This document shows, piece after piece, positions 1-14,609 of a DNA stretch of 43,835 bases; positions within the stretch are counted from its first letter, which is position 1, and each line of letters starts with the position of its first letter. Source of the stretch: Alphaproteobacteria bacterium. Its GTDB lineage: Bacteria > Pseudomonadota > Alphaproteobacteria > Geminicoccales > Geminicoccaceae. Below the pieces are notes generated by a model. That model was given only the letters and a program-made list of their open reading frames with translations, did no database searches and was not told where the DNA came from. Location of the stretch: NCBI GenBank assembly GCA_026984595.1, contig JALSRW010000405.1, positions 1 to 43,835 on the forward strand. The letters run 5' to 3'. A program made the translations under genes and the position numbers.

Positions 1-711
1 GTAGTAGCCGTCGAGGCGCACGTGGCAACGCATGAACAGGCTGTAGATGTCTTCATGCAGTTCGCGCACGCTGGGGCGGTAGTCGTCAGAACGGTATTCC
101 TCCTCGAGCGCAGCCAGCACGGCTTCGGAGGCCTTGGCGGTGAGCAGGTGCTTGCCGTGGGCGGCGGTGAGCTCGCCGCGGCGCACGAGGTCTTGGGCCC
201 AGTCGGGCAATTCGGCCAGGCGCATGAGGTTCGAGATCTGCGGGCGCGACATTCGGATGCCGTGCCCGGCCAGCGCCTCCTCGACTTCGGCCAGGCTGCG
301 CTTGCCGTGCTGTTCGCGCATCCGGCGCAGTACCTTCGCCCATTCCATGGGATTGAGGTCGCGGCGCAGGTGGTTCTCCTTCACCTGGTTCAGCAAACGG
401 GCGAGCGGGTCGCTTTCGTCGTCTTCGCTGAGCAGGGCGGGGATGGTTTCCTTGCCGGCGACGACGCAGGCGCGGCAGCGGTTCTCGCCGTACTTGATGA
501 TGTAGCGGCCCGGTTTTTTCGGGTTGGGCCGCACGGTGACGGGCTGCAGCACGCCGTGCGCGGCGATGTCCTCGGCCAGCTCGGCGATGAAGGCCTCGTC
601 GAAATCCTTGCGCGGCTGGTCCGGGTCCACGTCGATGAGCTTGAGCGGCAGCTCGGTGACGACGCCGGGTTGCAGCTCGAAGGGTTGGGGTTTTCTGGCG
701 GTGGCGGGCAT
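1..711 (-). CDS. ParB/Spo0J-like nuclease-domain protein (3' end cut by window edge)
   Basis: Absent from the ORF track because there is no stop in the window. My translation from ATG 711-709 (GGAGG 5 nt upstream) reads MPATARKPQPFELQPGVVTELPLKLIDVDPDQPRKDFDEAFIAELAEDIAAHGVLQPVTVRPNPKKPGRYIIKYGENRCRA..., which has typical ParB N-terminal boxes. The listed 22-756(+) ORF is its shadow frame. Confidence 0.8.
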   Translation of the reverse strand, partial: MPATARKPQPFELQPGVVTELPLKLIDVDPDQPRKDFDEAFIAELAEDIAAHGVLQPVTVRPNPKKPGRYIIKYGENRCRACVVAGKETIPALLSEDDESDPLARLLNQVKENHLRRDLNPMEWAKVLRRMREQHGKRSLAEVEEALAGHGIRMSRPQISNLMRLAELPDWAQDLVRRGELTAAHGKHLLTAKASEAVLAALEEEYRSDDYRPSVRELHEDIYSLFMRCHVRLDGYY

Positions 712-742
712 GGCGACCTCCGGTTTTCAGGGTTTTCGTGGT

Positions 743-771
743 TTGTTTTTGTGTAGCCTGTAGGCTACAAT
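743..771 (+). promoter_or_regulatory. Putative promoter/operator of the toxin-antitoxin pair
   Basis: TTGTTT (743-748), 17-nt spacer, TACAAT (766-771). Inverted repeat TAGCCT-gt-AGGCTA (754-767) overlaps the -10. The toxin ATG at 778 is only 6 nt past the -10, so the mRNA may be leaderless. Confidence 0.5.
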
Positions 772-777
772 CAGGAC

Positions 778-1086
778 ATGGGGTTCGAGATCCGCACCAC
801 GCCGGTGTTCGACAGGTGGCTCAAGAGCGTGAAGGACCAGCAAGCCGTTCGGGCCATCGCCATGCGGATTGCGCGGGCGGAAGCCGGACATCTCGGTGAT
901 GTCGAGCCGGTCGGCGATGGCGTGTGCGAAATGCGGATCTTCATCGGCAAGGGGTATCGAATCTATTTCGCCCGCCGGGGCGACGCGATATTGCTGTTGC
1001 TCAATGGCGGCATCAAGAGCAACAAGAAACAGCAGCAAGCCGATATTCAGCGAGCCCGCGAAATCCTGGCGCAAATCGAGGAGTAG
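778..1086 (+). CDS. RelE/ParE-superfamily toxin (addiction module killer protein, HigB-like)
   Basis: 102 aa. The pattern F..WL..V.D..A...I..RI.R...G..GD..PVGDGV.E.RI..G.GYRIYF...G..I.LLL.GG.K..Q..DI..A is the killer-protein family signature as I recall it. The antitoxin gene follows 3 nt downstream. Confidence 0.85.
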   Translation: MGFEIRTTPVFDRWLKSVKDQQAVRAIAMRIARAEAGHLGDVEPVGDGVCEMRIFIGKGYRIYFARRGDAILLLLNGGIKSNKKQQQADIQRAREILAQIEE

Positions 1087-1089
1087 GCC

Positions 1090-1365
1090 ATGAAGACGAA
1101 GCCCTTCAACCCGTTCGATTACATGGAAACGCAGGCGGAAATCGACGCCTACCTGCTCGAATGCTTCAACGACGATGATCCGCAGGTGTTCGTGAATGCT
1201 CTCGGCCACTTGGCCAGGCACTATGGCGTGAGCGAGGTGGCCGAGGCCGCCGGCCTCAATCGGGAAAGCCTGTACAAGATCATCAACGGCAAGTCCAAGC
1301 CAAGATGGGAAACGGTGCGACGGCTGATGAAAGCCATGCACGTCGATCTGACCATCGCCGCCTGA
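1090..1365 (+). CDS. HTH antitoxin (addiction module antidote protein, HigA-like)
   Basis: 91 aa. N-terminal F.P..Y......I.AYL motif and an HTH segment GVSEVAEAAGLNRESLYKIINGKSKP. Lies immediately downstream of the toxin. Confidence 0.85.
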   Translation: MKTKPFNPFDYMETQAEIDAYLLECFNDDDPQVFVNALGHLARHYGVSEVAEAAGLNRESLYKIINGKSKPRWETVRRLMKAMHVDLTIAA

Positions 1366-1442
1366 ACGCGGCGTTTCCCGGGTAACGGTATTTCCCTCAT
1401 TCATTCCCGCTCTCCTGCGCCATGGCGCGCGATCTCCCCCGT

Positions 1443-1643
1443 TCAATTCGGGATGCGGCTGTGCAGGCGGTGCACGCAGCAGGTGCACAGCATGACGGGG
1501 CCGGTGTCGGGGCGGGTTTCGCTGCGCCAGGGTTCGAGCTGGCCGGGCCAGACGTAGCGGCCGCAGAGGTCGCATTGGTCCAGGTCGATGGCGAGCGGCG
1601 CAGAGGGGCGCCCGGGTTGGCGTTCCGTTCTCGTCGCGTTCAT
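1443..1643 (-). CDS. Small Cys-rich (putative zinc-ribbon) protein, translationally coupled to csrA
   Basis: 66 aa with CDLCGRY...CTCCVHRL. Its ATG overlaps the csrA stop (ATGA). AAGGAGGA lies 6 nt upstream. Confidence 0.6.
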
Positions 1644-1819
1644 GGCGTTTCCTCCTTGGCGCGGATGCGCTGGTAGATTTCCTCGCGGTGCACGGACACG
1701 TGGGCGGGGGCGTCGATGCCCAGGCGCACGTTGCCGTGCGGGTCGACGCCCAGGATGCGCACGCGGATGTCGTGACCGATCCGGATGTCTTCTCCAATCT
1801 TGCGTCCCAGTACGAGCAT
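1640..1819 (-). CDS. csrA: CsrA/RsmA-family RNA-binding translational regulator, phage-borne
   Basis: 59 aa from the internal Met of the 94-aa ORF: [57 protein letters not shown]. This aligns with the canonical MLILTRRVGE...[12 protein letters not shown] of CsrA. SD AAGGAGGA at 1825-1832. Confidence 0.9.
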
Positions 1820-1849
1820 GGGTTTCCTCCTTGCGGGTGGTAGGTCGAG

Positions 1850-1875
1850 AGGCGTTTCCCGGGAAACGAACGCCT
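1850..1875 (-). promoter_or_regulatory. Palindromic hairpin in the csrA leader
   Basis: AGGCGTT-TCCCGGGAAACG-AACGCCT, containing the perfect 16-nt palindrome CGTTTCCCGGGAAACG (1853-1868). A GGGA would sit in or near the loop, and a second GGA lies in the SD. Confidence 0.45.
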
Positions 1876-2081
1876 TAAATTGCGTTCTCGTCGAGTTTGT
1901 GATCTCCACACCAGTCGGTTTCAAATACCACCGGATATCCGTTCATCGTGGGAGCATGACGTCGGCAGCGGCCAATTGGCGCGGTATTTTCAGATGACTC
2001 AGATTTGGCCTTGATCACGAACCACATGCATGTGGCGCACGCCATGTTCTTGTTACGGTGTTTCCATGGATCAGGGTTCAT
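1875..2081 (-). CDS. Hypothetical small Cys-containing protein (68 aa)
   Basis: Natural-looking composition ([26 protein letters not shown]...), four Cys residues, and AAGGAGAG upstream of the ATG. Confidence 0.65.
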
Positions 2082-2114
2082 ATCTCTCTCCTTTTAAGCT
2101 GCGTTGAAAAAACG

Positions 2115-2399
2115 TCACCATTCGATGAGCCGGTATTTCACGCCCGCCTTGTTGAGCCCCTGGTCCCGCTGTTCCGTGGAGGACTGGTGGGACAGGTACA
2201 AGGTGAGGCGGCCGGCGCGATAACCGGCTTCGATGGTGCCGATGGGGTTGTTCCAGCGCTGGATGCGGCCATCGGCGCGCTGCAGGCGGATGTCGTCGCT
2301 CGGCAGGTGCAGGCCGATGCCGATGTCCACGTAGAACAGGCCGGCGAGGAGGATGGCGCTCATGGCGCCGGCTTTGCGGTTACGCGACGGAACGGGCAT
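2115..2399 (-). CDS. PagL-like (lipid A deacylase / acyloxyacyl hydrolase family) C-terminal-half protein; start 2399 or 2363
   Basis: The tail ...GRLTLYLSHQSSTEQRDQGLNKAGVKYRLIEW resembles the PagL C-terminus (..RAIHYSNAGLKQPNDGIESYSLFYKI) recalled from memory, including the H-x-S catalytic motif. At only 82-94 aa it looks truncated relative to full PagL. The upstream part of the 183-aa ORF is a shadow frame. Confidence 0.4.
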   Translation of the reverse strand: MPVPSRNRKAGAMSAILLAGLFYVDIGIGLHLPSDDIRLQRADGRIQRWNNPIGTIEAGYRAGRLTLYLSHQSSTEQRDQGLNKAGVKYRLIEW

Positions 2400-2682
2400 G
2401 GTTCTTCTCCAGTTTGTCCAGGTAATCGAAAATGCCCTGGTTGGCGCGAAACAGCCACAGGTCGCGCAGGGCGCGCGCATCGTCCAATACAGGCCACCAG
2501 GCCGGGTTGGTGTCTGCGGCAAGGCGCATGGCTTCGCACCAGCCGGCCAGCCAGCCGGAAAAGGTGTCGTCGCGCGTCTGGCGGCGCAGCATGTTGCCGT
2601 TGGCCTCGTATTCGTCCACCAGAGCGCAGTTGTTGCGCCACTCCTGGTACAGCACGCTCCTGGCATGGTCGTAGATGTTCAT
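2380..2682 (-). CDS. Hypothetical early protein (100 aa)
   Basis: Balanced composition (MNIYDHARSVLYQEWRNNCALVDEYEANG...). AAGGAGGAAACC lies upstream. ATGA overlap with the upstream ORF. Confidence 0.7.
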   Translation of the reverse strand: MNIYDHARSVLYQEWRNNCALVDEYEANGNMLRRQTRDDTFSGWLAGWCEAMRLAADTNPAWWPVLDDARALRDLWLFRANQGIFDYLDKLEKNHARSVA

Positions 2683-2870
2683 GGTTTCCTCCTTTTCCTT
2701 GCGAGGGTTCGAAAACGCCGGCGCAGGTGAAACTCCACGCCGCGGCCCAAGCCGGCGCCGGCATGGCAGCGGCGCAGAAAGGTGCGGTGGCGCTGCGGGC
2801 GCGGGAGCCTGTGCCGCGCATCCCGCCGCCAGAGCCGCCTGGCCGCGAGCCGGATGCGCAGGTCACTCAT
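2679..2870 (-). CDS. Hypothetical very basic Arg-rich protein (63 aa)
   Basis: GGAGGAAGACG upstream of the ATG. Coupled at both ends: ATGAGTGA with the upstream peptide ORF and ATGA with the downstream ORF. The composition is extreme, so the call is uncertain. Confidence 0.4.
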   Translation of the reverse strand: MSDLRIRLAARRLWRRDARHRLPRPQRHRTFLRRCHAGAGLGRGVEFHLRRRFRTLARKRRKP

Positions 2871-2976
2871 CGTCTTCCTCCAGCCGGTTGATGCCGCTCA
2901 TGGTGGCGAGCACGGCGAGCAGGCCCAGCACGAACAGGCCGCCGACGGCGAGCAGGAGCAGGACGAGCGTGGCCAT
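2863..2976 (-). CDS. 37-aa hydrophobic membrane peptide (too short for the ORF track)
   Basis: My translation is MATLVLLLLAVGGLFVLGLLAVLATMSGINRLEEDDE. It has a single TM segment with an acidic tail, and its stop overlaps the next start. Confidence 0.4.
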   Translation of the reverse strand: MATLVLLLLAVGGLFVLGLLAVLATMSGINRLEEDDE

Positions 2977-2985
2977 GTCCACGGC

Positions 2986-3150
2986 TCAGGCCCTCGCTAG
3001 CTCGAGCGGGAAGCGCAGGGTGCGGCCTACGGCCCGGGCCTGCAGGTACATGTCGCGCCGGCAGAGCCAGCGGCCGTAGCGGGCGGCGTTGCGGCGGGTC
3101 TGGATATCAGGCTGGTGTTGGCGGATCACGAATGACTGAAGTGGGTTCAT
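2986..3150 (-). CDS. First gene of the leftward early operon, 54 aa hypothetical
   Basis: My translation is MNPLQSFVIRQHQPDIQTRRNAARYGRWLCRRDMYLQARAVGRTLRFPLELARA. CAGGAGGAACCGCC precedes the ATG at 3150-3148, directly downstream of the PL-like promoter. Confidence 0.55.
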   Translation of the reverse strand: MNPLQSFVIRQHQPDIQTRRNAARYGRWLCRRDMYLQARAVGRTLRFPLELARA

Positions 3151-3178
3151 GGCGGTTCCTCCTGATGACTATGGGAGA

Positions 3179-3221
3179 AACATAGCAACCGAAAGTTGCT
3201 ATGTCAACAACCGTGGGTTGT
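3179..3221 (-). promoter_or_regulatory. PL-like early-left promoter with two operator palindromes
   Basis: On the minus strand: TTGACA (3207-3202), 17-nt spacer, TATGTT (3184-3179). The spacer contains GCAACTTTCGGTTGC (3185-3199). A second related palindrome, ACAACCGTGGGTTGT, is at 3207-3221. Confidence 0.7.
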
Positions 3222-3296
3222 GTTTTTATGTGCAATAAGGCATATATGTGCTTTTGGTGGGCTGGAGGGGGAGGGCTGTGGGGGTGGTGTGGGAAG

Positions 3297-3345
3297 CGGA
3301 TATACTGATAGAGATAGAGTTTTTGTTGCGTTATTCGGATATACT
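3297..3345 (+). repeat. Direct repeat CGGATATACT x2 (39-bp spacing) in an AT-rich spacer upstream of the methyltransferase gene
   Basis: Copies at 3297-3306 and 3336-3345. Each contains a TATACT -10-like hexamer. A G-rich tract at 3256-3293 precedes them. Confidence 0.5.
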
Positions 3346-3419
3346 CGCAGCACTCAATAAAGTAATACTCTTATTCTGGTTTTTGTCTGAACAGTTTCGC
3401 CACAACAACAAAAAAGTGG

Positions 3420-4541
3420 ATGACGTTTCGTGAGTATCGAACGAAGACGGCTCATGAACGGACGATGCGACCGAAAAACGACATGAAGAAAATCGCTTGC
3501 GTCGATCTCTATTGCGGCGTAGGCGGACTTTCCTATGGCCTGAAGAAGGCCGGGGTGAACGTCGTTGCCGGAATCGACGTGGACGAGAGCTGCAAGTGGG
3601 GATACGAGCGCAACGTCGAGGCGCGTTTCGTGCGGGCCGACGTCGCCGATCTGAGCGGAGACGATCTGTGCGAGCTCTTCCCTCCGGCCGAACATCGTCT
3701 GCTCGCCGGATGTGCGCCGTGCCAGCCGTTTTCCACTTACGGCAGAACGCGGCAGGGTTCCGACGACAGGTGGTCGTTGTTGCGCGAGTTCTCGCGCCTG
3801 GTCGAAGAGACGAAGCCGGAGTTCGTGACCATGGAGAACGTGGAAGGACTCGCCTCTCATCGCGTGTTCGGCGAATTCCTGGAAACGTTGGAAGAATGTG
3901 GTTATGCCGTCGCTCATGGTGTGCTGGCGTGCGAACGGTTCGGCGTTCCGCAGCGGCGGCGGCGTCTGGTGCTCGTGGCGTCACGCATCGGCGACGCCGT
4001 CCTTCCAGAACCTGATGGCGGGTCGCCGCGGACGGTAAGGGATACGATCGAACGATTGCCGCCAATCGCCGCAGGCGGCGGGCCTTGCGATAGCGACCGT
4101 TTTCACGTCGCCGCCGGTCTTTCCGAGCTGAATCTGCGTCGCATCCGCAATTCCGTCGAGGGTGGTTCATGGCGGGATTGGCCGAAAGAGCTTCGGGCTC
4201 CGTGCCACCGGCGCGAAACCGGCGCCACGTATCCGTCCGTGTACGGCAGGATGCGCTGGGACGAGCCTGCGCCGACCATCACCACCCAGTGTTATGCCTA
4301 CGGCAGCGGTCGTTTCGGACATCCTGAGCAGGATCGCGCCATCTCGCTGCGCGAGGCGGCCATGCTCCAGTCGTTCCCGTCGAACTGGGAGTTCGTGCCG
4401 CCGGGAGAGGAGATCCATTTCGCCACCATCGGCCGCGCCATCGGCAACGCCGTGCCGCCGAAGCTCGCCGAGGCCGTCGGCCGCACGATCATCACGCTTT
4501 CGGAAGCTGGAAGATCGCCGCGAGCCGATGCCGTAGCGTGA
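3420..4541 (+). CDS. DNA (cytosine-5)-methyltransferase (start possibly 3465 or 3483)
   Basis: Motif I DLYCGVGGLS, motif IV GCAPCQPFS, motif VI TMENVEGL, QRRRR, and C-terminal GNAVPP. Confidence 0.92.
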   Translation: MTFREYRTKTAHERTMRPKNDMKKIACVDLYCGVGGLSYGLKKAGVNVVAGIDVDESCKWGYERNVEARFVRADVADLSGDDLCELFPPAEHRLLAGCAPCQPFSTYGRTRQGSDDRWSLLREFSRLVEETKPEFVTMENVEGLASHRVFGEFLETLEECGYAVAHGVLACERFGVPQRRRRLVLVASRIGDAVLPEPDGGSPRTVRDTIERLPPIAAGGGPCDSDRFHVAAGLSELNLRRIRNSVEGGSWRDWPKELRAPCHRRETGATYPSVYGRMRWDEPAPTITTQCYAYGSGRFGHPEQDRAISLREAAMLQSFPSNWEFVPPGEEIHFATIGRAIGNAVPPKLAEAVGRTIITLSEAGRSPRADAVA

Positions 4542-4905
4542 GCAAATCCCGGGTTTCGCATTCCCAGATCGTTTCCACCCGCCATCCGGCGTCGCGCAGC
4601 GCCTGCGCCACGCGCGCATCGCGCGCGACGTTTTCCTCGAACTTCGGTATCCAGTAGTCTCGCCGCGTCTTCGGCGTCGTGGCTTTGCCGCAGCCGGGAT
4701 GCCGATGCCAGAAACAGCCGTGAACGAAGAGGCAGACGCGGTGTTTCGGAAACACCAGGTCCGGCGTGCCGGGCAGATCCTTGCGGTGCAGGCGGAAGCG
4801 GAGTCCGAGGGCGTGCGCGGCCTTGCGCACGGCGATTTCAGGCGCAGTGCCTTCGCGGCGGACGGCGCGCATGATTTCGCTGCGGGTCTTCTTTTGACTG
4901 ATCAA
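4492..4905 (-). CDS. vsr: Very short patch repair endonuclease
   Basis: Matches to E. coli Vsr: TRSEIMRAV (TRSKNMRAI), PGTPDLVF, FVHGCFWHRH, W..KF..NV.RD, GWRV..IWECE. TTG start at 4905 overlaps the upstream stop (TTGA). The 3' end overlaps the MTase 3' end by 50 nt. Confidence 0.92.
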   Translation of the reverse strand: MISQKKTRSEIMRAVRREGTAPEIAVRKAAHALGLRFRLHRKDLPGTPDLVFPKHRVCLFVHGCFWHRHPGCGKATTPKTRRDYWIPKFEENVARDARVAQALRDAGWRVETIWECETRDLLTLRHRLAAIFQLPKA

Positions 4906-6833
4906 GAGAGAACGTCGTCGATGAAGTCGATTTCCTTCGTGCGTTCCAAGTATTCGGAATAGGCCTGCTTCGCCTTGACGATCAATTCGTCGTAGGTAAA
5001 GACCTTCGAACCGGGCATGATCGATGCGATCGGGGTTTCCACATCACGGGTTCGCTCTCCAAGAACGATGATCACCTCGAATCGTTCGTGCGGGAACTTT
5101 CTTTCGAGCGCCACCTTGTATTTTTCCACCTGGTCGAGAAGCGTTCCGGTCGTGGGTCTGACGCTGGCGCGTTTCAGTTCCACGATGAGGTGCTTTCCGG
5201 AGACCGCTTTGTAACGAATGTCGATGCGGCCGTATTCGTCGTTCGTGCCTTCATCTCCGGAGAATTCCGGTAGCAGCCGGATGCGCTCTTCCATGCTCGT
5301 GTCGTCCGTGGCGCGATCCCATGAAGGGTCGAGCAACCACAGATGGTCGAACAGATATTTCTGCAGCGCCCTTTCCTTCTGATTCTCGTCGACCAGACTG
5401 GCGAATTCCGTCACCGCTTCCAGGCGGTTTCGGGCGATGTCGCGGTACATGGACGCCTCGAGGGCGTCTCGATCCGCGAGCAACTTGAGAAGGGCGTCAA
5501 CGCCTTCGGCGAGTGCCTGCTCGAGCGATTCCGCGTCGCCGCGCATGCGCAGCCGCTCGAAACCGTAAATTGCGTGGCGAACGAGGTCCTTGCGCGCCTC
5601 GGCCGGTTCCGTTTCTTCGGGCAGAGGCATGGCCGCGATACGGCCGAGAAGCGTTTCAGCCTTTCTTCGCCAGCCGGAGTCGAGTCGGCCTAGCCAGTCG
5701 TCGATTCGCGGATATTGCTCACGCAGTTCGTCGGCCTTGTCGGAAACGCGCAATTCGCTCCAACGGTTCGCGATCTCGCGCAAACGAGATGACAGGAACG
5801 AGACGAGTTCGTTCACTCGCGGATCATCCTCACGAAGTCGTTGTCGGTCGCTGGTCACGATGTCGTCGCCGGTGCTGTCGTCCAGCCAATCGGCTTCGAT
5901 CTGGCCGGTGACGTAGCTTGCGAAGATGCCGGCGTCATGCAATTTCGGCAGGATGTCTTCCTGTACGAGCCGGCCGCGGCTCATGACCACGATGGAATTG
6001 AGATTCCCTTCCGGCGTGGAGAGTTGTTTGGGTCTGTCCACGGTACCGATCCAACCACGCACGACACGCTCTTGCGGCCATCCCGGGGCACGGGCATGCA
6101 TATCGAACCGTTTCAACAGATTGGGTGGTTCGTCCACATCGCTGCCTTCCATCACCCAGAGGTACTGAACGAATTTCAGGTCTTCGCGATCGGCAGATCT
6201 GACCTCGGTACCGTTGACGAAGACCCTGAACTCATTTCCTCCGATCACCGAGAATCGACGCGCCAGCCTGCGACGCAGCGATTCCGGGCGCGCGTCTCGC
6301 AACCTGGGCTTGAGCCGTGAAAGGCGAATCAGGGTACCGCTATCGGCCAGTTCCGAATCGTGTTCCGGCGTCACGGCAGGCGGCTCGTAACGGTTGGACG
6401 TTCCATCTTCCATTCGATCACGTAGCTCCGGCACGTCGATGACGAGCGCGGCGACGTCGCCACCTTCGCGCCGCGTCTCCAGGCGGATTTCGTCGGCGAT
6501 GGAGAAGAGAGACAGTTTGCCGATGCCCTTGCGGCCCATGACCGGGCGGCGGAGTCTTTCCGAAACGTCACCGACGGTTCGACGGCGGTAGCCGACGCGA
6601 AGGTACCTGTCGTTCACCTCGGCCGGCGTCATTCCGATGCCGTCGTCGCGGATGACGATGACGTCGTTCGCGATATCGAGGTCGAGGTGCACGTTGCGTG
6701 CGTCGGCGTCCCAGGCGTTCGCGACGGCCTCGGTAAGCACGGCGGCCACGCTGCTGTACAGACCGTCGGCAAGATGGTCGAGTACGGTGAGGTCGATCGT
6801 CAGGCTGTAGGTCGGGGCGTTTTCCGGCGGCAT
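4902..6833 (-). CDS. GHKL (Bergerat-fold) ATPase fused to a C-terminal PD-(D/E)xK-type nuclease-like domain; defence/restriction candidate
   Basis: N-box EAVANAWDA, G1 IRDDGIGM, G2 GRKGIGKLSLFS. The C-terminal GRIDIRY...LIVELKR, preceded by LFDHLWLLDPSW, resembles DUF4263/Shedu-type nucleases as I recall them and needs an HMM check. The start is 9 nt after the upstream ORF stop. Confidence 0.8.
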   Translation of the reverse strand: MPPENAPTYSLTIDLTVLDHLADGLYSSVAAVLTEAVANAWDADARNVHLDLDIANDVIVIRDDGIGMTPAEVNDRYLRVGYRRRTVGDVSERLRRPVMGRKGIGKLSLFSIADEIRLETRREGGDVAALVIDVPELRDRMEDGTSNRYEPPAVTPEHDSELADSGTLIRLSRLKPRLRDARPESLRRRLARRFSVIGGNEFRVFVNGTEVRSADREDLKFVQYLWVMEGSDVDEPPNLLKRFDMHARAPGWPQERVVRGWIGTVDRPKQLSTPEGNLNSIVVMSRGRLVQEDILPKLHDAGIFASYVTGQIEADWLDDSTGDDIVTSDRQRLREDDPRVNELVSFLSSRLREIANRWSELRVSDKADELREQYPRIDDWLGRLDSGWRRKAETLLGRIAAMPLPEETEPAEARKDLVRHAIYGFERLRMRGDAESLEQALAEGVDALLKLLADRDALEASMYRDIARNRLEAVTEFASLVDENQKERALQKYLFDHLWLLDPSWDRATDDTSMEERIRLLPEFSGDEGTNDEYGRIDIRYKAVSGKHLIVELKRASVRPTTGTLLDQVEKYKVALERKFPHERFEVIIVLGERTRDVETPIASIMPGSKVFTYDELIVKAKQAYSEYLERTKEIDFIDDVLS

Positions 6834-6842
6834 GCGTGATTC

Positions 6843-7271
6843 TCAAAACGGTTCGTTGCGCGGTGCGCCGCAGTCGTCGGTGGTGCAGATGCGCCAGTCG
6901 GGGAAGCCGGAGCGGACTTCGGGGTAGGGTGGGGGAAGGTCGCGGATGGGGGCGGCGGCGGTGTGGTAGTCGGCCAGGCGTTTTTCGAGGGTGGCGGTGT
7001 ACCGGCGCAGGTCCTGGAGCTGGGCCGCCTGGCGCTCGAGGGCGGCGACGCTGACGGCGAAGGCGAGGGCCGAGCCGAAGCCGATCAGCAGGAGCGAGGA
7101 GGCGCTGACGAGGAGGGGGCGGCGCAGGTTGGCGAGGATGCGGTCGGCGCGTTTCCCGGGGAACGGTTGGGATGACGGTGGTGCTTCATCCGCTTCGGAT
7201 ACAATGTTGGCAATTTGTTCGACGAGGTTTTGCTGCTCTTTACGCAGCGCGTCGTTTTTTCTTGAGGGCAT
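6843..7271 (-). CDS. Single-pass membrane protein (142 aa), first gene downstream of the repressor
   Basis: TM segment LLVSASSLLLIGFGSALAFAVSV followed by a coiled-coil-like stretch and a C-terminal CTTDDC. Overlaps the repressor 3' end by 32 nt. Confidence 0.6.
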   Translation of the reverse strand: MPSRKNDALRKEQQNLVEQIANIVSEADEAPPSSQPFPGKRADRILANLRRPLLVSASSLLLIGFGSALAFAVSVAALERQAAQLQDLRRYTATLEKRLADYHTAAAPIRDLPPPYPEVRSGFPDWRICTTDDCGAPRNEPF

Positions 7272-7824
7272 GCTCCTTCACCTTCTCTATAGATATCAGG
7301 TTGTCGAAGTCGCCAAAATACGGTTCGTGTCGCTTGATTTCATCTTCGTCCATCTCCGACATCAGCTCTAGCTCGATCATCAAATAGCGGTAGATCAGAC
7401 TTTCTAGTTTGGCGCGCTGGCGTGCGATGAATCGTTTACCTGTCCGCTCCTGGAGTTCGTCTACAGCCTCAATGGCCATGGCGAGGATGTCAACTTCATT
7501 TTCTGCGCCAAAATCTAAAGCAGGAAAAGCAGGAGTTTGCTGCTCAGTAACATGATTTTGTCGTGTTATAGGTGACTCTTGCATTGGCCCGATTCCGGTT
7601 AACAGCCACTCGCCACGCACACCTAGTTTCTTGGCTATTTCTGGAATTCTTTTTGTATCTGGTATAGAAAAGCCATCAAGCCACTTTCTGGCTGACTCCC
7701 CTGAAACCCCAAACATTCTCGCCAATTCGGCGCGTCGCCCACGGCCTTTCACTATACCGGCAAGGTCGCATGCGGCATGAAGTCGCTTCGAGAATTCTTG
7801 TTTTTCATCAATCATGGCAACCAT
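7240..7824 (-). CDS. CI-like phage repressor, XRE-family HTH, no S24 peptidase domain (start 7824 or 7815)
   Basis: HTH segment RAELARMFGVSGESARKWLDGFSIPDTKRIPEIAKKLGVRGEWLLTG. The C-terminal half is helical and acidic with no Ser/Lys S24 motif. Divergent from the cro-like gene. The track start at 7896 would run through PR. Confidence 0.8.
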   Translation of the reverse strand: MVAMIDEKQEFSKRLHAACDLAGIVKGRGRRAELARMFGVSGESARKWLDGFSIPDTKRIPEIAKKLGVRGEWLLTGIGPMQESPITRQNHVTEQQTPAFPALDFGAENEVDILAMAIEAVDELQERTGKRFIARQRAKLESLIYRYLMIELELMSEMDEDEIKRHEPYFGDFDNLISIEKVKEHALKKKRRAA

Positions 7825-7860
7825 AAGTTGTAATTTAGATTTTTCCACCGCACTTATCAG
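7817..7860 (-). promoter_or_regulatory. PRM-like promoter with operator over the repressor start
   Basis: On the minus strand: CTGATA (7860-7855), 17-nt spacer, TAAATT (7837-7832), then 7 nt to ATG 7824. Palindrome GCAACCATAAGTTGT (7817-7831) covers the predicted start site and start codon. Confidence 0.45.
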
Positions 7861-7863
7861 GTG

Positions 7864-7893
7864 TTGACAAGCGCAACTTTCGGTTGCTAATCT
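7864..7893 (+). promoter_or_regulatory. PR-like early-right promoter with operator in the spacer
   Basis: TTGACA (7864-7869), 18-nt spacer containing GCAACTTTCGGTTGC (7873-7887), TAATCT (7888-7893). The cro-like ATG at 7900 is 6 nt downstream. Confidence 0.7.
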
Positions 7894-7899
7894 CATTTC

Positions 7900-8148
7900 A
7901 TGAACCAGATTCAGAGAGTGAAAGTGATCTTCGGGAGCTATTCAGCCGTCGGTGCGGCGCTTGGCGTATCTGGCGAAGCGGTTCGCAAATGGGAGCTGCA
8001 TGGCGTTCCCGCAGAGCGCGTCCTCGCCATCGAGGCCGCCACCGATTACCAGGTCAGCCGCCACGAGCTGCGCCCGGACCTCTATCCGAAGGAGTCCTGG
8101 TGCCAGTGCCCGGCTTGCCGCCGGCGGCAGGAGGACGATGCCGCATGA
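7900..8148 (+). CDS. Cro-like / YdaS-type HTH regulator
   Basis: 82 aa. The segment FGSYSAVGAALGVSGEAVRKWELHGVPAERVLAIEAAT matches the YdaS/Cro-type HTH pattern. Divergent from the repressor. Confidence 0.75.
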   Translation: MNQIQRVKVIFGSYSAVGAALGVSGEAVRKWELHGVPAERVLAIEAATDYQVSRHELRPDLYPKESWCQCPACRRRQEDDAA

Positions 8149-10896: not shown

Positions 10897-11382
10897 ATGT
10901 CGGCGCCGGCGGAGTTGGTGGAGCGGTTGGCGAATCCGGTGCGGCTGGTCGCGGACGACGGTCATCCGGAGGTGCCGGGATGGCACTGCGCGGGGATGCC
11001 GGACCACTGGTTCGCGGCGATGCGGATGAAGTGGGCGAACGACTGGTCGGGCGCGAACCTGCTGGAATACCGCCTGTGGATGGCGGCGGTGGACATGGCC
11101 ATCGAGGGTCGCTGGCGCGTGCCGTCCGGCGGGGAGCGCCTGCGGCGCATGGCGGGGCTGGCGATCGCGGAGCTGGCCGATCCGGAACGGTATCGCGCCA
11201 CGGATGCCTGGCAGCTCAAGGCGGCGTGGGTCGGTGTGACGAAGTCGCGCTGGTTCGAGACGTGGCAGCCACGTTACGAGGCGCTATACCGGGTGCTGGA
11301 CGACTGGAGCAACGCGGCCTGGCGGTTCGTGAAGGCGCGCCAGAACGGGATGGTTTCAGCAGACTTGCAAAACCGGGACTGA
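10897..11382 (+). CDS. Hypothetical protein in the Q (late regulator) position (161 aa)
   Basis: Last early-right gene, followed by a hairpin and an intrinsic terminator and then the packaging genes. The function is suggested by position only. Confidence 0.6.
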   Translation: MSAPAELVERLANPVRLVADDGHPEVPGWHCAGMPDHWFAAMRMKWANDWSGANLLEYRLWMAAVDMAIEGRWRVPSGGERLRRMAGLAIAELADPERYRATDAWQLKAAWVGVTKSRWFETWQPRYEALYRVLDDWSNAAWRFVKARQNGMVSADLQNRD

Positions 11383-11463
11383 GCGGCTACGATTTTTCCA
11401 TACTCGGACAAATGCCCCCAGGGCATTTCTCCCCAGCCGGGTATCCGCGCAAATCCATGAACA

Positions 11464-11494
11464 GAACCCCGCCTCGGCGGGGTTCTTTCGTTTT
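11464..11494 (+). terminator. Intrinsic terminator between early and late genes
   Basis: GAACCCCGCC-tc-GGCGGGGTTC followed by TTTCGTTTT. An 8-bp hairpin AAATGCCC-cca-GGGCATTT lies upstream at 11410-11428. Confidence 0.75.
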
Positions 11495-11505
11495 CGGGAG
11501 ATGAA

Positions 11506-11790
11506 ATGCATCTGGGCGATCCGAGCAACTGGCTGCCGTTCTTCCTGACCGCGGGGTCGAGCCGGCTGAACGTGCAGCGCATCATCGAGGCGGTGATCAT
11601 CGCCGGCATCAGCGGCGGCGTGACGATGTACGGCGCGCAGAAGATGCTGGTGACCCGCCTCGAGAACATGGACCGCAACATCATGCGCCTGGAAAAACGC
11701 CAGGAGCGCATGTTCAACGATCTGTACCGGCCGCGCGTGTCGCCGCTGGAGCAGCGGTGGCAACACCTGGAGCGGTCCGGCGGGCGATGA
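11506..11790 (+). CDS. Small membrane/coiled-coil protein (94 aa)
   Basis: TM segment IIEAVIIAGISGGVTMYGA followed by a charged helix. GGGAGA upstream. Confidence 0.6.
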   Translation: MHLGDPSNWLPFFLTAGSSRLNVQRIIEAVIIAGISGGVTMYGAQKMLVTRLENMDRNIMRLEKRQERMFNDLYRPRVSPLEQRWQHLERSGGR

Positions 11791-11814
11791 GCGAATTTTT
11801 CCCGGAGAACCACG

Positions 11815-12396
11815 GTGGCGAGACGAAACATCAACGGCCTGACGCCGAAGCAGCAGGTCTTCTGCGATCTGTTTCGCGCCAGCGAGGATCCGTCCGTGCG
11901 GGGCAATGCCAAGGCCTGCTACATGCTGGCCTACGGGGCGTCGGACAAGAGCGCTGAGGCCAACGGGCCGCGCCTGCTGAAGAATCCGCACGTGGCCGAG
12001 TATCTGGCCACCAAGCGGCAGGCGGCGGAGGAGAAGGCCGACGTGAGCGAGGAGCGCATTCTGCGCGAGGTGGCGGCCATCGCGTTCCTGGACCCGGCGG
12101 AGTATTTCGACCCGCACGGCAATCTGTTGCCCATCCACGAGATGCCGGAACGGGCACGCCGGGCTCTGGCCTCGGTGGAGGTGACGACGATGGGCAAGGA
12201 TGCCGAGGCCCTGGTGACGAAGATCCGGAACTGGGACAAGAAGGGCTCCCTCGAACTGCTGATGAAGCACAAGAAGATGCTCACCGACAAGGTGGAGCAC
12301 GGCGGGGAGATCAAGACCGGCGGCGTGCTCGTGGCGCCGGGTGACGTGAGCCTGGACGAATGGCTGAACCAGCATTACGGCAAGAACAAGAAGTAG
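11815..12396 (+). CDS. Terminase small subunit
   Basis: GTG start. N-terminus NGLTPKQQVFCDLF...AYMLAYG...A..NG.RLLKN..V..YL is the Terminase_2-type pattern. Lies directly upstream of terL. Confidence 0.85.
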   Translation: MARRNINGLTPKQQVFCDLFRASEDPSVRGNAKACYMLAYGASDKSAEANGPRLLKNPHVAEYLATKRQAAEEKADVSEERILREVAAIAFLDPAEYFDPHGNLLPIHEMPERARRALASVEVTTMGKDAEALVTKIRNWDKKGSLELLMKHKKMLTDKVEHGGEIKTGGVLVAPGDVSLDEWLNQHYGKNKK

Positions 12397-14609
12397 AAGT
12401 CGTCTGGCAGCCGTTCCCGGGCGGCCAGACGCGCTTTCTGTCCTGCCCGGTGCGGGAGATCTTCGCGGAGGGGAACCGGGGCGGGGGAAAGACCGAAACC
12501 CTGCTCATGAAATACCTGCGCTACGTGGGGACGGGGTTCGGGGCGGCGTGGACGGGGATCATCTTCCGCCGGGAGTACAAGCACCTCGACGACGTGGTGA
12601 AGAAGTGCAAGCGCTGGATCCCGCAAATCTTCCCCGAGGCCCGCTGGCTGAGCGCGAAAAGCGACTACAAGTGGGTGTTCCCCGACGGCGAAGAGCTGTT
12701 CCTGCGAGCGATGAAGGACCCGGACGATTACTGGAACTACCACGGCCACGAGTATCCCTTCATCGCCTGGGAGGAGCTGACCAACTGGCCGAGCAACGAT
12801 TGCTACGAGGTGATGAAGAGCTGCAATCGCTGTTCGGTGAAGGGCGTGCCGCGCTTCTACGTTTCCACGGGAAACCCCTACGGGGCCGGCCACGGCTGGG
12901 TGAAGGAGCATTTCATCGACATCGGGCCGGAAGGGACGGTGGCGACGGACGACCAGGGCAACGCCCGGGTGCGCATCCATGTGGACCTGGAAGACAACCG
13001 GGCGATGATGGAGAACGACCCGGAGTACGTGAAGCAGCTCGACGGGATCGAGAACCCGGAGCTGCGCAAGGCCTGGCGCGAGGGCGACTGGGATATCGTG
13101 GTCGGCGGGTTCCTGCAGGGGATCTGGAACCCGAAGGTGCACGTGGTCGAGCCGTTCGAGATTCCGCTCGACTGGCCGCGCTGGCGGGCCATGGACTGGG
13201 GCTTCGCGGCGCCGTATTCCATCGGCTGGTACGCGATCAGCCCGGAGGGGGTGGTGTACCGCTACCGGGAACTCTACGGCTACGGCGGCAAGGCGGGGGT
13301 GGGCACCCGGGAGTCGGCCACGGAGGTGGCCAGGAAGGTGCTGGCGGCGGAGAAGCGCGAGCGGGATGCCGGGGTGGTGTTCCGGCGCAATCCGGCCGAC
13401 AGCCAGATCTTCGCCAACGACGGGCGCGAGAAGACCATCGAGGAGTATTTCCGCCGCGAGGGCGTGCGCTGGGTGAAGGCCACGAAAGGGCCCGGGTCTC
13501 GCGTGAACGGGGCGCAGGCCATCATCCAGGCGCTGCAGCAGGAGAAGTTCAAGGTCTTCGACACTTGCGTGCACTTCATCCGCACCGTGCCGGTGCTGAT
13601 GCCCGATCCGCACAACTGGGAGGATGTGGATACGGAGATGGAGGACCATTGCTTCGTCGGCGATACGCAGGTGATGACGGACGAAGGGCCTGTGGCCATC
13701 CGGGACCTGGTCGGGCGGTCCGGCAGGGTGGTGTCGGTCGACGGCTTGCGGCGGTTCGCGCATTGCAGGATGACACGCAGGACCGCCAGCGTGGTCACGG
13801 TCAGGTTCGAGGATGGCACGCAGGTGACATGCACGCCTGACCACAGGTTCGTTGGAGTGAACGGGTGGATCGAGGCAAGATATCTGACGGGAAGAAGCGT
13901 GTGCATGTTGTCTCGGACACGATCCAGGAGTTCATGGGCGTCCGATACTACCTGTGCGGGAGATACTTCCAAAGGCGTGGCAGACGGCTTCATCGTGTCG
14001 TATGGGAAGCGCATCGCGGCAAGATTCCTTCGGGCTATCAAATCCATCATGTCGACGGCGACAAGCGCAACAATCAGATCGAGAATCTACAGTGTTTGCC
14101 GATCACCATCCATCAGCGTCATCACGCCAGGGAAAGAAGACTGCACGAGATCGGACGCAAGGCGGGTGCAACCGCCGCTGCGGCAAATTGGCACGGAAGC
14201 GAGGAAGGACGGCGATGGCACCGGGAGCACTACGAGAAGCATTTGCGCGCCATTCACACCGATCGCACGGTGGAAAAACAATGTCAGTTCTGTGGTGCGC
14301 CGTTTTTTACGACCAGGGCAGCGGCCGGACGTGCCATGTATTGCTCGAGACGCTGTGCGGCCGCTGCGGGTCGTCGCCGTAGAGCCGGCAGGCAAGTCTG
14401 ATGTGTATTGCCTGTCCGTGCCGGTGACGCACGCGTTTTCGCTGGCCAACGGGGTTTTGGTCTCGAACTGCTGGGACGAGGCAATGTATTCGCTGCGTTC
14501 CCGGCACAGGGCCTTGCGGCTGGATGAGGAGAACAGGGAACCGAAGCCGGGCACCTACGACTGGCTGATCAAGGTGACGTCGGAGAAACGGCGCACCATT
14601 CGCATCTGA
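12360..14609 (+). CDS. Terminase large subunit, interrupted by an intein (exteins 12360-13649 and 14469-14609)
   Basis: Walker A GNRGGGKT, WEELTNWP, a nuclease region, and the junction ...MEDH|C...N|CWDEAMY. Continuous 749-aa ORF, 476 aa after removing the intein. Confidence 0.9.
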   Translation: MAEPALRQEQEVEVVWQPFPGGQTRFLSCPVREIFAEGNRGGGKTETLLMKYLRYVGTGFGAAWTGIIFRREYKHLDDVVKKCKRWIPQIFPEARWLSAKSDYKWVFPDGEELFLRAMKDPDDYWNYHGHEYPFIAWEELTNWPSNDCYEVMKSCNRCSVKGVPRFYVSTGNPYGAGHGWVKEHFIDIGPEGTVATDDQGNARVRIHVDLEDNRAMMENDPEYVKQLDGIENPELRKAWREGDWDIVVGGFLQGIWNPKVHVVEPFEIPLDWPRWRAMDWGFAAPYSIGWYAISPEGVVYRYRELYGYGGKAGVGTRESATEVARKVLAAEKRERDAGVVFRRNPADSQIFANDGREKTIEEYFRREGVRWVKATKGPGSRVNGAQAIIQALQQEKFKVFDTCVHFIRTVPVLMPDPHNWEDVDTEMEDHCFVGDTQVMTDEGPVAIRDLVGRSGRVVSVDGLRRFAHCRMTRRTASVVTVRFEDGTQVTCTPDHRFVGVNGWIEARYLTGRSVCMLSRTRSRSSWASDTTCAGDTSKGVADGFIVSYGKRIAARFLRAIKSIMSTATSATIRSRIYSVCRSPSISVITPGKEDCTRSDARRVQPPLRQIGTEARKDGDGTGSTTRSICAPFTPIARWKNNVSSVVRRFLRPGQRPDVPCIARDAVRPLRVVAVEPAGKSDVYCLSVPVTHAFSLANGVLVSNCWDEAMYSLRSRHRALRLDEENREPKPGTYDWLIKVTSEKRRTIRI
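13650..14468 (+). mobile_element. Intein (273 codons) in terL
   Basis: Block A CFVGDTQVMT, block B TCTPDHRF, C-terminal VYCLSVPVTHAFSLANGVLVSN followed by Cys+1. The middle portion has no in-frame endonuclease domain. Confidence 0.85.
13865..14401 (+). CDS. HNH homing endonuclease encoded in the +2 frame inside the intein (likely start ATG 13934)
   Basis: LHRVVWEAHRGKIPSGYQIHHVDGDKRNNQIENLQCLPITIHQRHH (HNH_3-type) plus CQFCG...YCSRRC. AGGAG lies 3 nt before ATG 13934. Its own TGA is at 14399-14401. Confidence 0.75.
   Translation: MDRGKISDGKKRVHVVSDTIQEFMGVRYYLCGRYFQRRGRRLHRVVWEAHRGKIPSGYQIHHVDGDKRNNQIENLQCLPITIHQRHHARERRLHEIGRKAGATAAAANWHGSEEGRRWHREHYEKHLRAIHTDRTVEKQCQFCGAPFFTTRAAAGRAMYCSRRCAAAAGRRRRAGRQV

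Follow-up and report, generated by a model that had tools for sequence, protein, structure and literature searches.

A probable HgiDII/BbrUII-type restriction–modification cassette as exchangeable cargo in the immunity region of an uncultured temperate phage

Gene organisation of the immunity region

The window considered here is the whole 43,835-nucleotide (nt) stretch of contig JALSRW010000405.1 (GenBank assembly GCA_026984595.1), assigned to an alphaproteobacterium of the family Geminicoccaceae. It carries the immunity region of a temperate phage, in which genes for a C5-cytosine DNA methyltransferase (MTase), a Vsr protein and a 643-amino-acid (aa) protein with an N-terminal GHKL ATPase lie between a PL-like promoter and a CI-like repressor gene. 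As judged from sequence comparison, positions 3483–6833 probably constitute a three-gene type II restriction–modification (R-M) cassette of the HgiDII/BbrUII family, which occupies a defence hotspot of a temperate phage and is exchangeable there for other cargo.

The early-left operon, PL, the cargo, the repressor gene and cro follow one another along the window (Table 1), an order that puts the cargo in a rex-like position. The PL-like promoter is directed into the leftward early operon and represents the left boundary of the cargo slot. The open reading frames (ORFs) of the MTase, Vsr, the 643-aa protein, a 142-aa membrane protein (transmembrane or TM gene) and the repressor all lie where the initial annotation of this DNA had placed them. 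Its description of the junctions also agrees with the sequence: the repressor ORF and the 142-aa gene overlap by 32 nt (7240–7271), the endonuclease and Vsr genes are joined by a TTGA overlap, the MTase gene converges on them, and the minus-strand genes lie downstream of the repressor gene in the same orientation. The gap between the TM gene and the endonuclease gene is only 9 nt, and no terminator-like site was seen on the minus strand between the two. The 4-nt overlap that follows is made up of the endonuclease stop codon and the TTG start of Vsr, which share TTGA (minus strand, ...CTCTCTTGATCAGTC).

The "visibly lower G+C" ascribed in the initial annotation to a block of about 3.9 kb proved marginal, with 62.4% in 3420–7271 against 66.0% in the window and 63.4% in 1–3200. 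Within the block, only the endonuclease gene (60.2%) departs clearly, the MTase gene having 64.2%, the Vsr gene 65.0% and the 142-aa gene 66.7%. A markedly higher A+T content is found in the repressor gene (47.5% G+C), which lies outside that block, and in the intergenic region 5' of the MTase gene. The latter presumably harbours the MTase's own promoter.

Table 1. Features in and around the cargo slot of the phage immunity region.
Feature	Coordinates	Strand	Basis
PL-like promoter, TTGACA-17-TATGTT, TG-extended	3207..3179	-	sigma-70 consensus scan, pattern match only
Intergenic region 5' of MTase gene, 45.5% G+C	3208-3482	none	putative seat of MTase promoter
C5-cytosine DNA methyltransferase gene	3483-4541 (ORF opens 3420)	+	ORF list, PF00145, TIGR00675, PADLOC MTase_II
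3'-end overlap of convergent MTase and Vsr genes, 50 nt	4492-4541	both strands	ORF coordinates
Vsr gene	4492-4905	-	TIGR00632, PF03852, PADLOC Vsr
643-aa BbrUII/HgiDII-family endonuclease gene	4902-6833	-	NF050001, PADLOC REase_II, phrog_6203
142-aa single-pass membrane protein gene (TM gene)	6843-7271	-	ORF; homologues in syntenic phages
CI-like helix-turn-helix (HTH) repressor gene	ORF 7240-7896, likely 7240-7824	-	phrog_4
PR-like promoter, TTGACA-17-TAATCT	from 7866 (with cro, feature 7866..8148)	+	sequence reading
Cro-like gene	7900-8148	+	P22_Cro and YdaS Pfam matches

Identity of the three cassette genes

The 643-aa protein matches the NCBIfam equivalog model NF050001, "BbrUII/HgiDII family restriction enzyme", with 693.3 bits (cutoff 550, E 3.6e-208), and the alignment is essentially full-length, covering residues 9–642 and model positions 1–656 of 659. 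PADLOC names it REase_II (PDLC03419, E 4.9e-98), and in PHROGs it belongs to phrog_6203 (E 1.3e-171), for which no function is given there. The HATPase_c_3 profile matches with an E value of 4.3e-16, in line with the ATPase assignment of the initial annotation. By these profile matches, the protein is placed in a named family of type II endonucleases and is no stand-in for a missing type II enzyme. The gene identities proposed in the initial annotation, i.e. a fusion of a GHKL ATPase with a PD-(D/E)xK-type nuclease together with a C5-MTase and Vsr, thus hold, but its portrayal of the fusion as uncharacterised and unconventional has to be given up. The HgiDII/paraMORC3 family is a large one, with more than 5,900 database relatives of the 643-aa protein.

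The prototypes of the family are HgiDII of Herpetosiphon and BbrUII of Bifidobacterium breve UCC2003, the latter of which recognises GTCGAC. R.HgiDII was described by Orlowski and Bujnicki (2008) as an N-terminal GHKL domain followed by a C-terminal domain that was then unassigned (PMC2441816). M.HgiDII acts on GTCGAC as a 5-methylcytosine (m5C) MTase and has a homologue in M.BbrUII (PMC5867850). The window protein resembles the prototypes in scoring above the NF050001 cutoff, in combining an N-terminal GHKL domain with a distinct C-terminal domain and in having a C5-cytosine MTase as its partner. It differs in that the cassette adds Vsr and is situated in the immunity region of a temperate phage.

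The same architecture was described as paraMORC3 by Iyer, Abhiman and Aravind (2008), who defined it by a GHKL domain, an S5 domain and a C-terminal restriction endonuclease (RE) fold with E-D-ExK motifs, in gene neighbourhoods that include cytosine methylases (Dcm) and Vsr (PMC2292703). This is the computational prediction of R-M-linked, MORC-like GHKL ATPases to which the initial annotation had alluded. Its statement that the four-gene arrangement had not been characterised can be kept for neither part, as the endonuclease/Vsr/MTase neighbourhood was published in 2008 and the TM gene does not belong to it (see below).

The MTase is recognised by PF00145 (E 1.7e-60), TIGR00675 (144 bits) and PADLOC MTase_II (E 1.1e-89), and all canonical C5 motifs are present: FxGxG (as CGVGG), PCQ, ENV, QRR and GNAVPP. 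Its ORF is open from 3420, and gene callers and homologues prefer a start at 3465 or 3483 (calls of 352 and 358 aa). Vsr exceeds the cutoffs of TIGR00632 (148.8 bits, cutoff 97.85) and PF03852 (E 4e-27; 94.3 bits, cutoff 27) and is also named by PADLOC. The family profiles align from its residue 4, which supports the TTG start.

In each of the close cassette copies, the MTase and Vsr genes run into one another at their 3' ends, over 50 nt in the window, 53 nt in locus L003 (2393–2445) and 89 nt in locus L005 (4231–4319). Such a convergent overlap may give rise to transcriptional interference or antisense control.

The highest-ranking PADLOC matches of the MTase are DrmMII of DISARM and DruM of Druantia. 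Both systems were rejected, since the MTase alone matches and the other core genes (DrmA/B/C and DruA-E/DruH) are absent. MZA was rejected as well, its other core genes being absent and the MzaB match reaching only 16–21 bits.

Recurrence of the cassette

Neighbourhoods of the endonuclease gene were surveyed in 80 species-representative genome loci with an endonuclease homologue, 68 of which have adequate flanks, and in IMG/VR, where 127 viral contigs encode relatives and the best 80 loci were counted. A close C5-MTase homologue lies beside the endonuclease gene in 46 of the 68 genome loci, 22 times together with Vsr and 24 times without it; four further loci have Vsr only, and 18 have neither. 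Among the best 80 viral loci, the C5 MTase is adjacent in 77, of which 15 have Vsr as well. The linkage of homologues to MTase and Vsr that the initial annotation had anticipated is thereby borne out.

The complete endonuclease–Vsr–MTase unit recurs in the same convergent geometry in L003, where the endonuclease is 90% identical. It is also found in two non-phage loci, L005 and L007, with endonucleases 67–68% identical. L005 is surrounded by an integrase gene, a RES-domain protein gene and a second MTase gene, and L007 is a metagenome-assembled genome (MAG) of the Methylothermaceae. All four of the closest members of the clade (the window's contig, L001, with L003, L005 and L007) possess both MTase and Vsr. 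In L002 (Logan SRR7968113, 1–1305), the products of the cassette, the TM gene, the repressor gene and cro are all 100% identical to those of the window by tblastn. The genes beyond cro differ, which indicates mosaicism of the replication module.

Carriage of this endonuclease family by phages is already on record, both through the 127 IMG/VR contigs and through "ParaMORC3 + Dcm" cargo of P2-like phages. The "ParaMORC3" of Escherichia phage PhiR44_1, annotated with Dcm in GenBank, is 37.7% identical to the window protein and scores 751 bits against NF050001. The counterpart of Yersinia phage P37 ("ParaMORC3 + Dcm") is more distant and remains below the cutoff at 329 bits. Like the window cassette, these genes are prophage cargo in a hotspot, but the phage lineage is a different one, the P2-like hotspot is located between gpQ and gpA instead of downstream of the repressor gene, and no Vsr gene is annotated in their flanks, unlike the window.

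Homologues lacking the close MTase might be taken for solitary genes. Three such loci were inspected, and for the two on which Pfam was run this was rejected. In L021 (256–11925) and L027 (1656–11934), the endonuclease homologue is positioned between an MmeI/Eco57I-like N6-MTase and a 1321-aa superfamily 2 (SF2) helicase, and the N6-MTase and the endonuclease homologue are separated by a KAP NTPase in L021 and by a 535-aa protein without assignable domain in L027. An operon of this type is also seen at L040 (1613–11955), the Pfam run having been made on L021 and L027. Across the three operons, the N6-MTase ranges from 975 to 1457 aa and the SF2 helicase from 1321 to 1334 aa. The name of NF050001 may therefore promise a more uniform mechanism than its members possess, given that they also occur in these MmeI-like MTase/helicase operons.

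Domain anatomy and nuclease fold of the endonuclease

The 643-aa protein can be divided into a GHKL ATPase (residues ~10–135), an Hsp90/MORC-like middle domain (~165–315), a helical linker (~338–480) and a putative nuclease domain (~500–640). The motifs named in the initial annotation (EAVANAWDA, DDGIGM, GRKGIGKLS, HLWLLDPSW and GRIDIRY...VELKR) are all present, and their key residues are invariant in an alignment of 46 homologues with 44–71% identity. The invariant GHKL residues are E35, N39, D42, D63, G65, G67, G100, K102, G103, G105 and K106; those of the C-terminal region are E487, E515, R536, D538, E552, K554, Q568 and Y572. Measured against its published description, paraMORC3 is matched in the order of a GHKL domain, an S5-like middle domain and a predicted RE fold, in the invariance of E487, E515, D538 and E552-x-K554 and in the Dcm and Vsr neighbours.

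An AlphaFold2 model of the protein (pLDDT, a predicted per-residue confidence, 83.6) consists of a Bergerat-fold domain, the middle domain, a long helical linker and a small alpha/beta C-terminal domain. A Foldseek search relates the N-terminal and middle domains to TRAP1/Hsp90 and MORC2/MORC3 (E 1e-14 to 1e-12). A sequence search of the PDB for a solved member of the family returned only weak GHKL matches to Hsp90 and MutL. The full-length Foldseek result is dominated by these two domains and mute on the nuclease, and the C-terminus was therefore modelled separately (pLDDT 83.3). In that model, D538 and E552-x-K554 are predicted to lie on adjacent strands of a beta-hairpin. The structural matches of the C-terminal model are weak (E ≥ 0.012), but the top ones are all PD-(D/E)xK nucleases, namely EndoMS/NucS (E 0.012, probability 0.96), an XisH-family protein and Nt.BspD6I/R.BspD6I. 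Pfam gave zero matches for the isolated C-terminal and middle regions of the window protein even at E ≤ 10. Of the 46 homologues, 15 match NucS_C (best E 3.2e-5), and 15 match SduA_C (formerly DUF4263) below threshold (best E 0.011). For the window protein itself, the evidence for a nuclease fold is sub-threshold. Taken together, this evidence points with moderate strength to a NucS-like PD-(D/E)xK nuclease as the predicted C-terminal domain.

The initial annotation had likened the C-terminus to DUF4263/Shedu, and this likeness leads to a different reading of the locus, in which the 643-aa protein would be a stand-alone, ATP-regulated immune nuclease of the Shedu type (type 1D, VcSduA-like) able to sense infection, with MTase and Vsr independent of it or self-protective. 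It resembles the methylation-gated restriction or abortive infection that the annotation had suggested. VcSduA indeed shares the GHKL plus PD-(D/E)xK architecture, with the ATPase probably controlling the C-terminal nuclease, and experiments have validated it as a defence that works with one gene; proteins related to it had been "previously annotated as paraMORC3" (PMC12137116). Gu et al. also list GHKL-fused Shedu proteins and Shedu genes within R-M loci, and the sub-threshold SduA_C matches among the homologues point in the same direction. VcSduA is, however, encoded by a single gene and is a bona fide DUF4263 protein, whereas the window protein has no detectable SduA_C/DUF4263 domain by Pfam (full protein, and isolated C-terminus at E ≤ 10), no match to the PADLOC Shedu models and no Shedu structure among its top Foldseek matches. 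It is closer to NucS_C, passes the cutoff of a curated restriction-enzyme equivalog and is linked to a closely related C5 MTase at the frequencies given above, a linkage that characterises cognate R-M pairs. The Shedu reading is thus considered improbable, and "NucS-like PD-(D/E)xK" describes the C-terminal domain better than "Shedu/DUF4263".

The cargo slot and the membrane protein gene

The cassette occupies a slot whose content differs among related phages. Phages syntenic with the window but devoid of the R-M cassette (L088–L093) share with it the order of small terminase, replication genes, Cro homologue, non-homologous repressor, TM gene, cargo and a CsrA-containing early-left operon, and their Cro homologues are 52–57% identical. 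Synteny between the window and L088 stops at about 3155 and resumes at 6839, an interval corresponding to the cassette and the PL-proximal intergenic region. In L088, the slot (10975–12523) contains PDC-M41A/B (E 1.8e-78 and 1e-114). In L091 (8421–12834) and L092 (1586–5872), it contains a type II N6/N4 MTase and a HerA-like ATPase, accompanied in L091 by a 449-aa protein without matches. The slot between the TM gene and PL is thus a defence hotspot with exchangeable cargo, comparable to the P2/P4 hotspots in that related phages carry differing defence systems in a variable position. Since its content changes from phage to phage between an R-M cassette, PDC-M41 and an MTase with a HerA-like ATPase, it is a good natural hotspot in which to mine for defence systems.

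The 142-aa ORF between the repressor and endonuclease genes looks like a real gene, as indicated by its G+C content at third codon positions (0.80), an AAGGAG sequence 4 nt before the ATG and one hydrophobic stretch at residues ~52–78. The protein has no family match in Pfam, PHROG, NCBIfam or PADLOC, RexA and RexB included, and a search of 1.84 billion representative proteins gave only five relatives with E < 1e-10.

The initial annotation counted this gene as one of four components. In such a four-gene system, the membrane protein would act as a sensor or effector partner of the nuclease, by analogy with RexA/RexB. The tight packing of the genes, with the 32-nt overlap on one side and the 9-nt gap on the other, agrees with this idea, as does the closest copy of the cassette (L003/L004, 90% identity), which also has a TM gene upstream. 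The distribution of the gene speaks otherwise. Its relatives (P0241, P0242) are found in the syntenic phages L088–L093, which have other cargo in place of the cassette, and the cassette occurs without a TM homologue in the non-phage loci L005 and L007. Outside this phage lineage, no TM homologue was found beside an endonuclease gene among the 80 genome loci and the best 80 viral loci. Moreover, the protein resembles neither RexA/RexB nor any defence model. A four-component system is for these reasons extremely improbable. The presence of TM homologues next to other cargo, combined with their absence from non-phage cassettes, identifies the TM gene, on comparative sequence evidence, as part of the phage backbone and as the right edge of the cargo slot. 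The resemblance to lambda rexAB is one of position only, co-oriented and downstream of the repressor gene, with no relation in sequence or mechanism; the cargo in the window is probably R-M and not abortive infection.

Proposed function and expression of the cassette

Under the R-M interpretation, the MTase would mark the cognate site on resident DNA with m5C, and the endonuclease would cut unmethylated incoming DNA via its D-ExK site. Vsr, a nickase, would repair T:G mismatches arising from deamination of the m5C made by the MTase. The GHKL ATPase and the middle domain probably form a dimer that either clamps or loops DNA or acts as a gate on the nuclease. Iyer et al. put forward this kind of action (PMC2292703), which has also been modelled for the analogous VcSduA (PMC12137116).

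The 9-nt gap and the overlapping junctions, together with the lack of a terminator-like site on the minus strand, suggest that endonuclease and Vsr are probably co-transcribed with the repressor in lysogens. The repressor gene would then head a leftward immunity operon that takes in the TM gene and the genes for endonuclease and Vsr, while transcription of the MTase gene would start in the AT-rich stretch 5' of it, beside PL, and converge on the operon. The role of lysogen-protecting defence cargo suggested in the initial annotation is retained as a likely function. Ordinary restriction with cognate m5C protection would explain the anatomy without the abortive-infection or methylation-gated mechanism that it had proposed.

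Several observations weigh against the R-M interpretation or limit how far it can be taken. The likeness to HgiDII/BbrUII is judged by the NF050001 model and the published descriptions, and on the MTase side the database names of the relatives are the generic "DNA cytosine methyltransferase", which provide no link to M.HgiDII. Homologues from the different operon type with an MmeI-like MTase likewise reach about 860 bits against NF050001, so family membership alone is no guarantee of a simple type IIP mechanism, and uniform function across the family is an assumption. No Foldseek match of the C-terminal model reaches E ≤ 1e-3, and a search of the PDB with a C-terminal profile gave nothing significant, NucS appearing at E 0.68 over the D...ExK region. 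The promoter scan revealed neither an MTase promoter nor an internal promoter of the endonuclease gene. Furthermore, the prototype site GTCGAC is not clearly avoided in the 43.8-kb window, where it occurs 15 times, compared with expectations of 17.5 from shuffling and 27.4 from a Markov model (z = -2.4). Depletion is stronger for GAGCTC and CTAG, but 43.8 kb is too little sequence for a conclusion. As the site of this cassette, GTCGAC is an unproven analogy with the prototypes. Finally, the conservation of a GHKL ATPase in a type II enzyme is unexplained, and the retention of an intact ATPase by a very large type II family represents the biochemical question that this locus raises. The discovery value in other respects is small; the family, the GHKL plus nuclease architecture, the Dcm/Vsr pairing and the carriage by phages are already on record.

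The cassette might instead serve mainly the phage. In that case the MTase would methylate phage DNA so that it evades restriction by the host, with the endonuclease and Vsr acting as a selfish addiction module that keeps the prophage stable. Type II R-M systems are known as post-segregational killers. The MTase gene is preceded by a divergent region of its own, adjacent to the early promoter, and the phage encodes a 2129-aa DarB-like anti-restriction protein, so that evasion of restriction evidently matters to it. A benefit to the phage is, however, not exclusive of a defence role. The non-R-M defence candidates in the same slot (PDC-M41 and the HerA system) argue for selection on defence, and the endonuclease retains every catalytic residue. 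A mainly phage-serving cassette is consequently held to be very unlikely.

A further elaboration of the R-M interpretation would combine two features, and their joint occurrence is speculative and rather doubtful. The endonuclease gene would have been slaved to the immunity operon after losing its own promoter and C-protein control, and the enzyme would be a GHKL-driven nuclease that clamps or loops DNA in an ATP-dependent manner. With the MTase gene firing from its own region, restriction would be switched on only after lysogeny, when the genome is already methylated. If true, this would amount to a controller-free, lysogeny-coupled installation of a toxic R-M system, and the "type II" enzyme would be mechanistically nearer to Shedu type 1D than to an orthodox type IIP enzyme.

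The repressor and the phage lineage

The repressor is assigned by phrog_4 (transcriptional repressor, E 5.8e-13) with weak matches to HTH_3 and Phage_CI_repr, and no S24 peptidase domain was found in it. Gene callers shorten it to 79 aa. A start at 7896 is unlikely because it would be only 3 nt before cro and because that stretch contains the TTGACA-17-TAATCT promoter; the start is probably M25 (7824) or M28 (7815). Only about 7 nt separate the end of the -10 element of this promoter (TAATCT) from the ATG of cro at 7900, a distance so short that the cro mRNA may be leaderless.

No homologue of the repressor was found in the syntenic phages L088 and L091, and the related phages are heteroimmune. 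Combined with its G+C content in a phage of 66%, this suggests that the repressor gene belongs to a recently swapped immunity module. The lineage comprises uncultured, high-GC temperate phages with a defined slot in the immunity region. The nearest deposited phage by portal protein has only 27% identity, and there is no close cultured phage. A tRNA search of the window was negative, and to the left of the window the contig continues for only 32 nt.

The DarB-like protein (phrog_10089, E 1.3e-181) is encoded by a 2129-aa ORF at 28801–35190 (+) and also includes a helicase-like region. A giant anti-restriction protein and the R-M cassette thus coexist in this phage. The large terminase (12360–14609, +) has 749 aa and a weak Intein_splicing match, as opposed to 474–475 aa in L088 and L091, and has probably acquired an intein insertion.

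In the early-left region, a CsrA homologue is encoded at 1640–1924 (-), and it is part of the early-left operon of every related phage examined (L088, 16458–16637; L091, 15644–15823). The same region includes, in the opposite orientation, a toxin–antitoxin-like pair formed by a Gp49/HigB-like gene (778–1086, +, 102 aa) and a subsequent HTH gene matching dnstrm_HI1420 (1090–1365, +, 91 aa).

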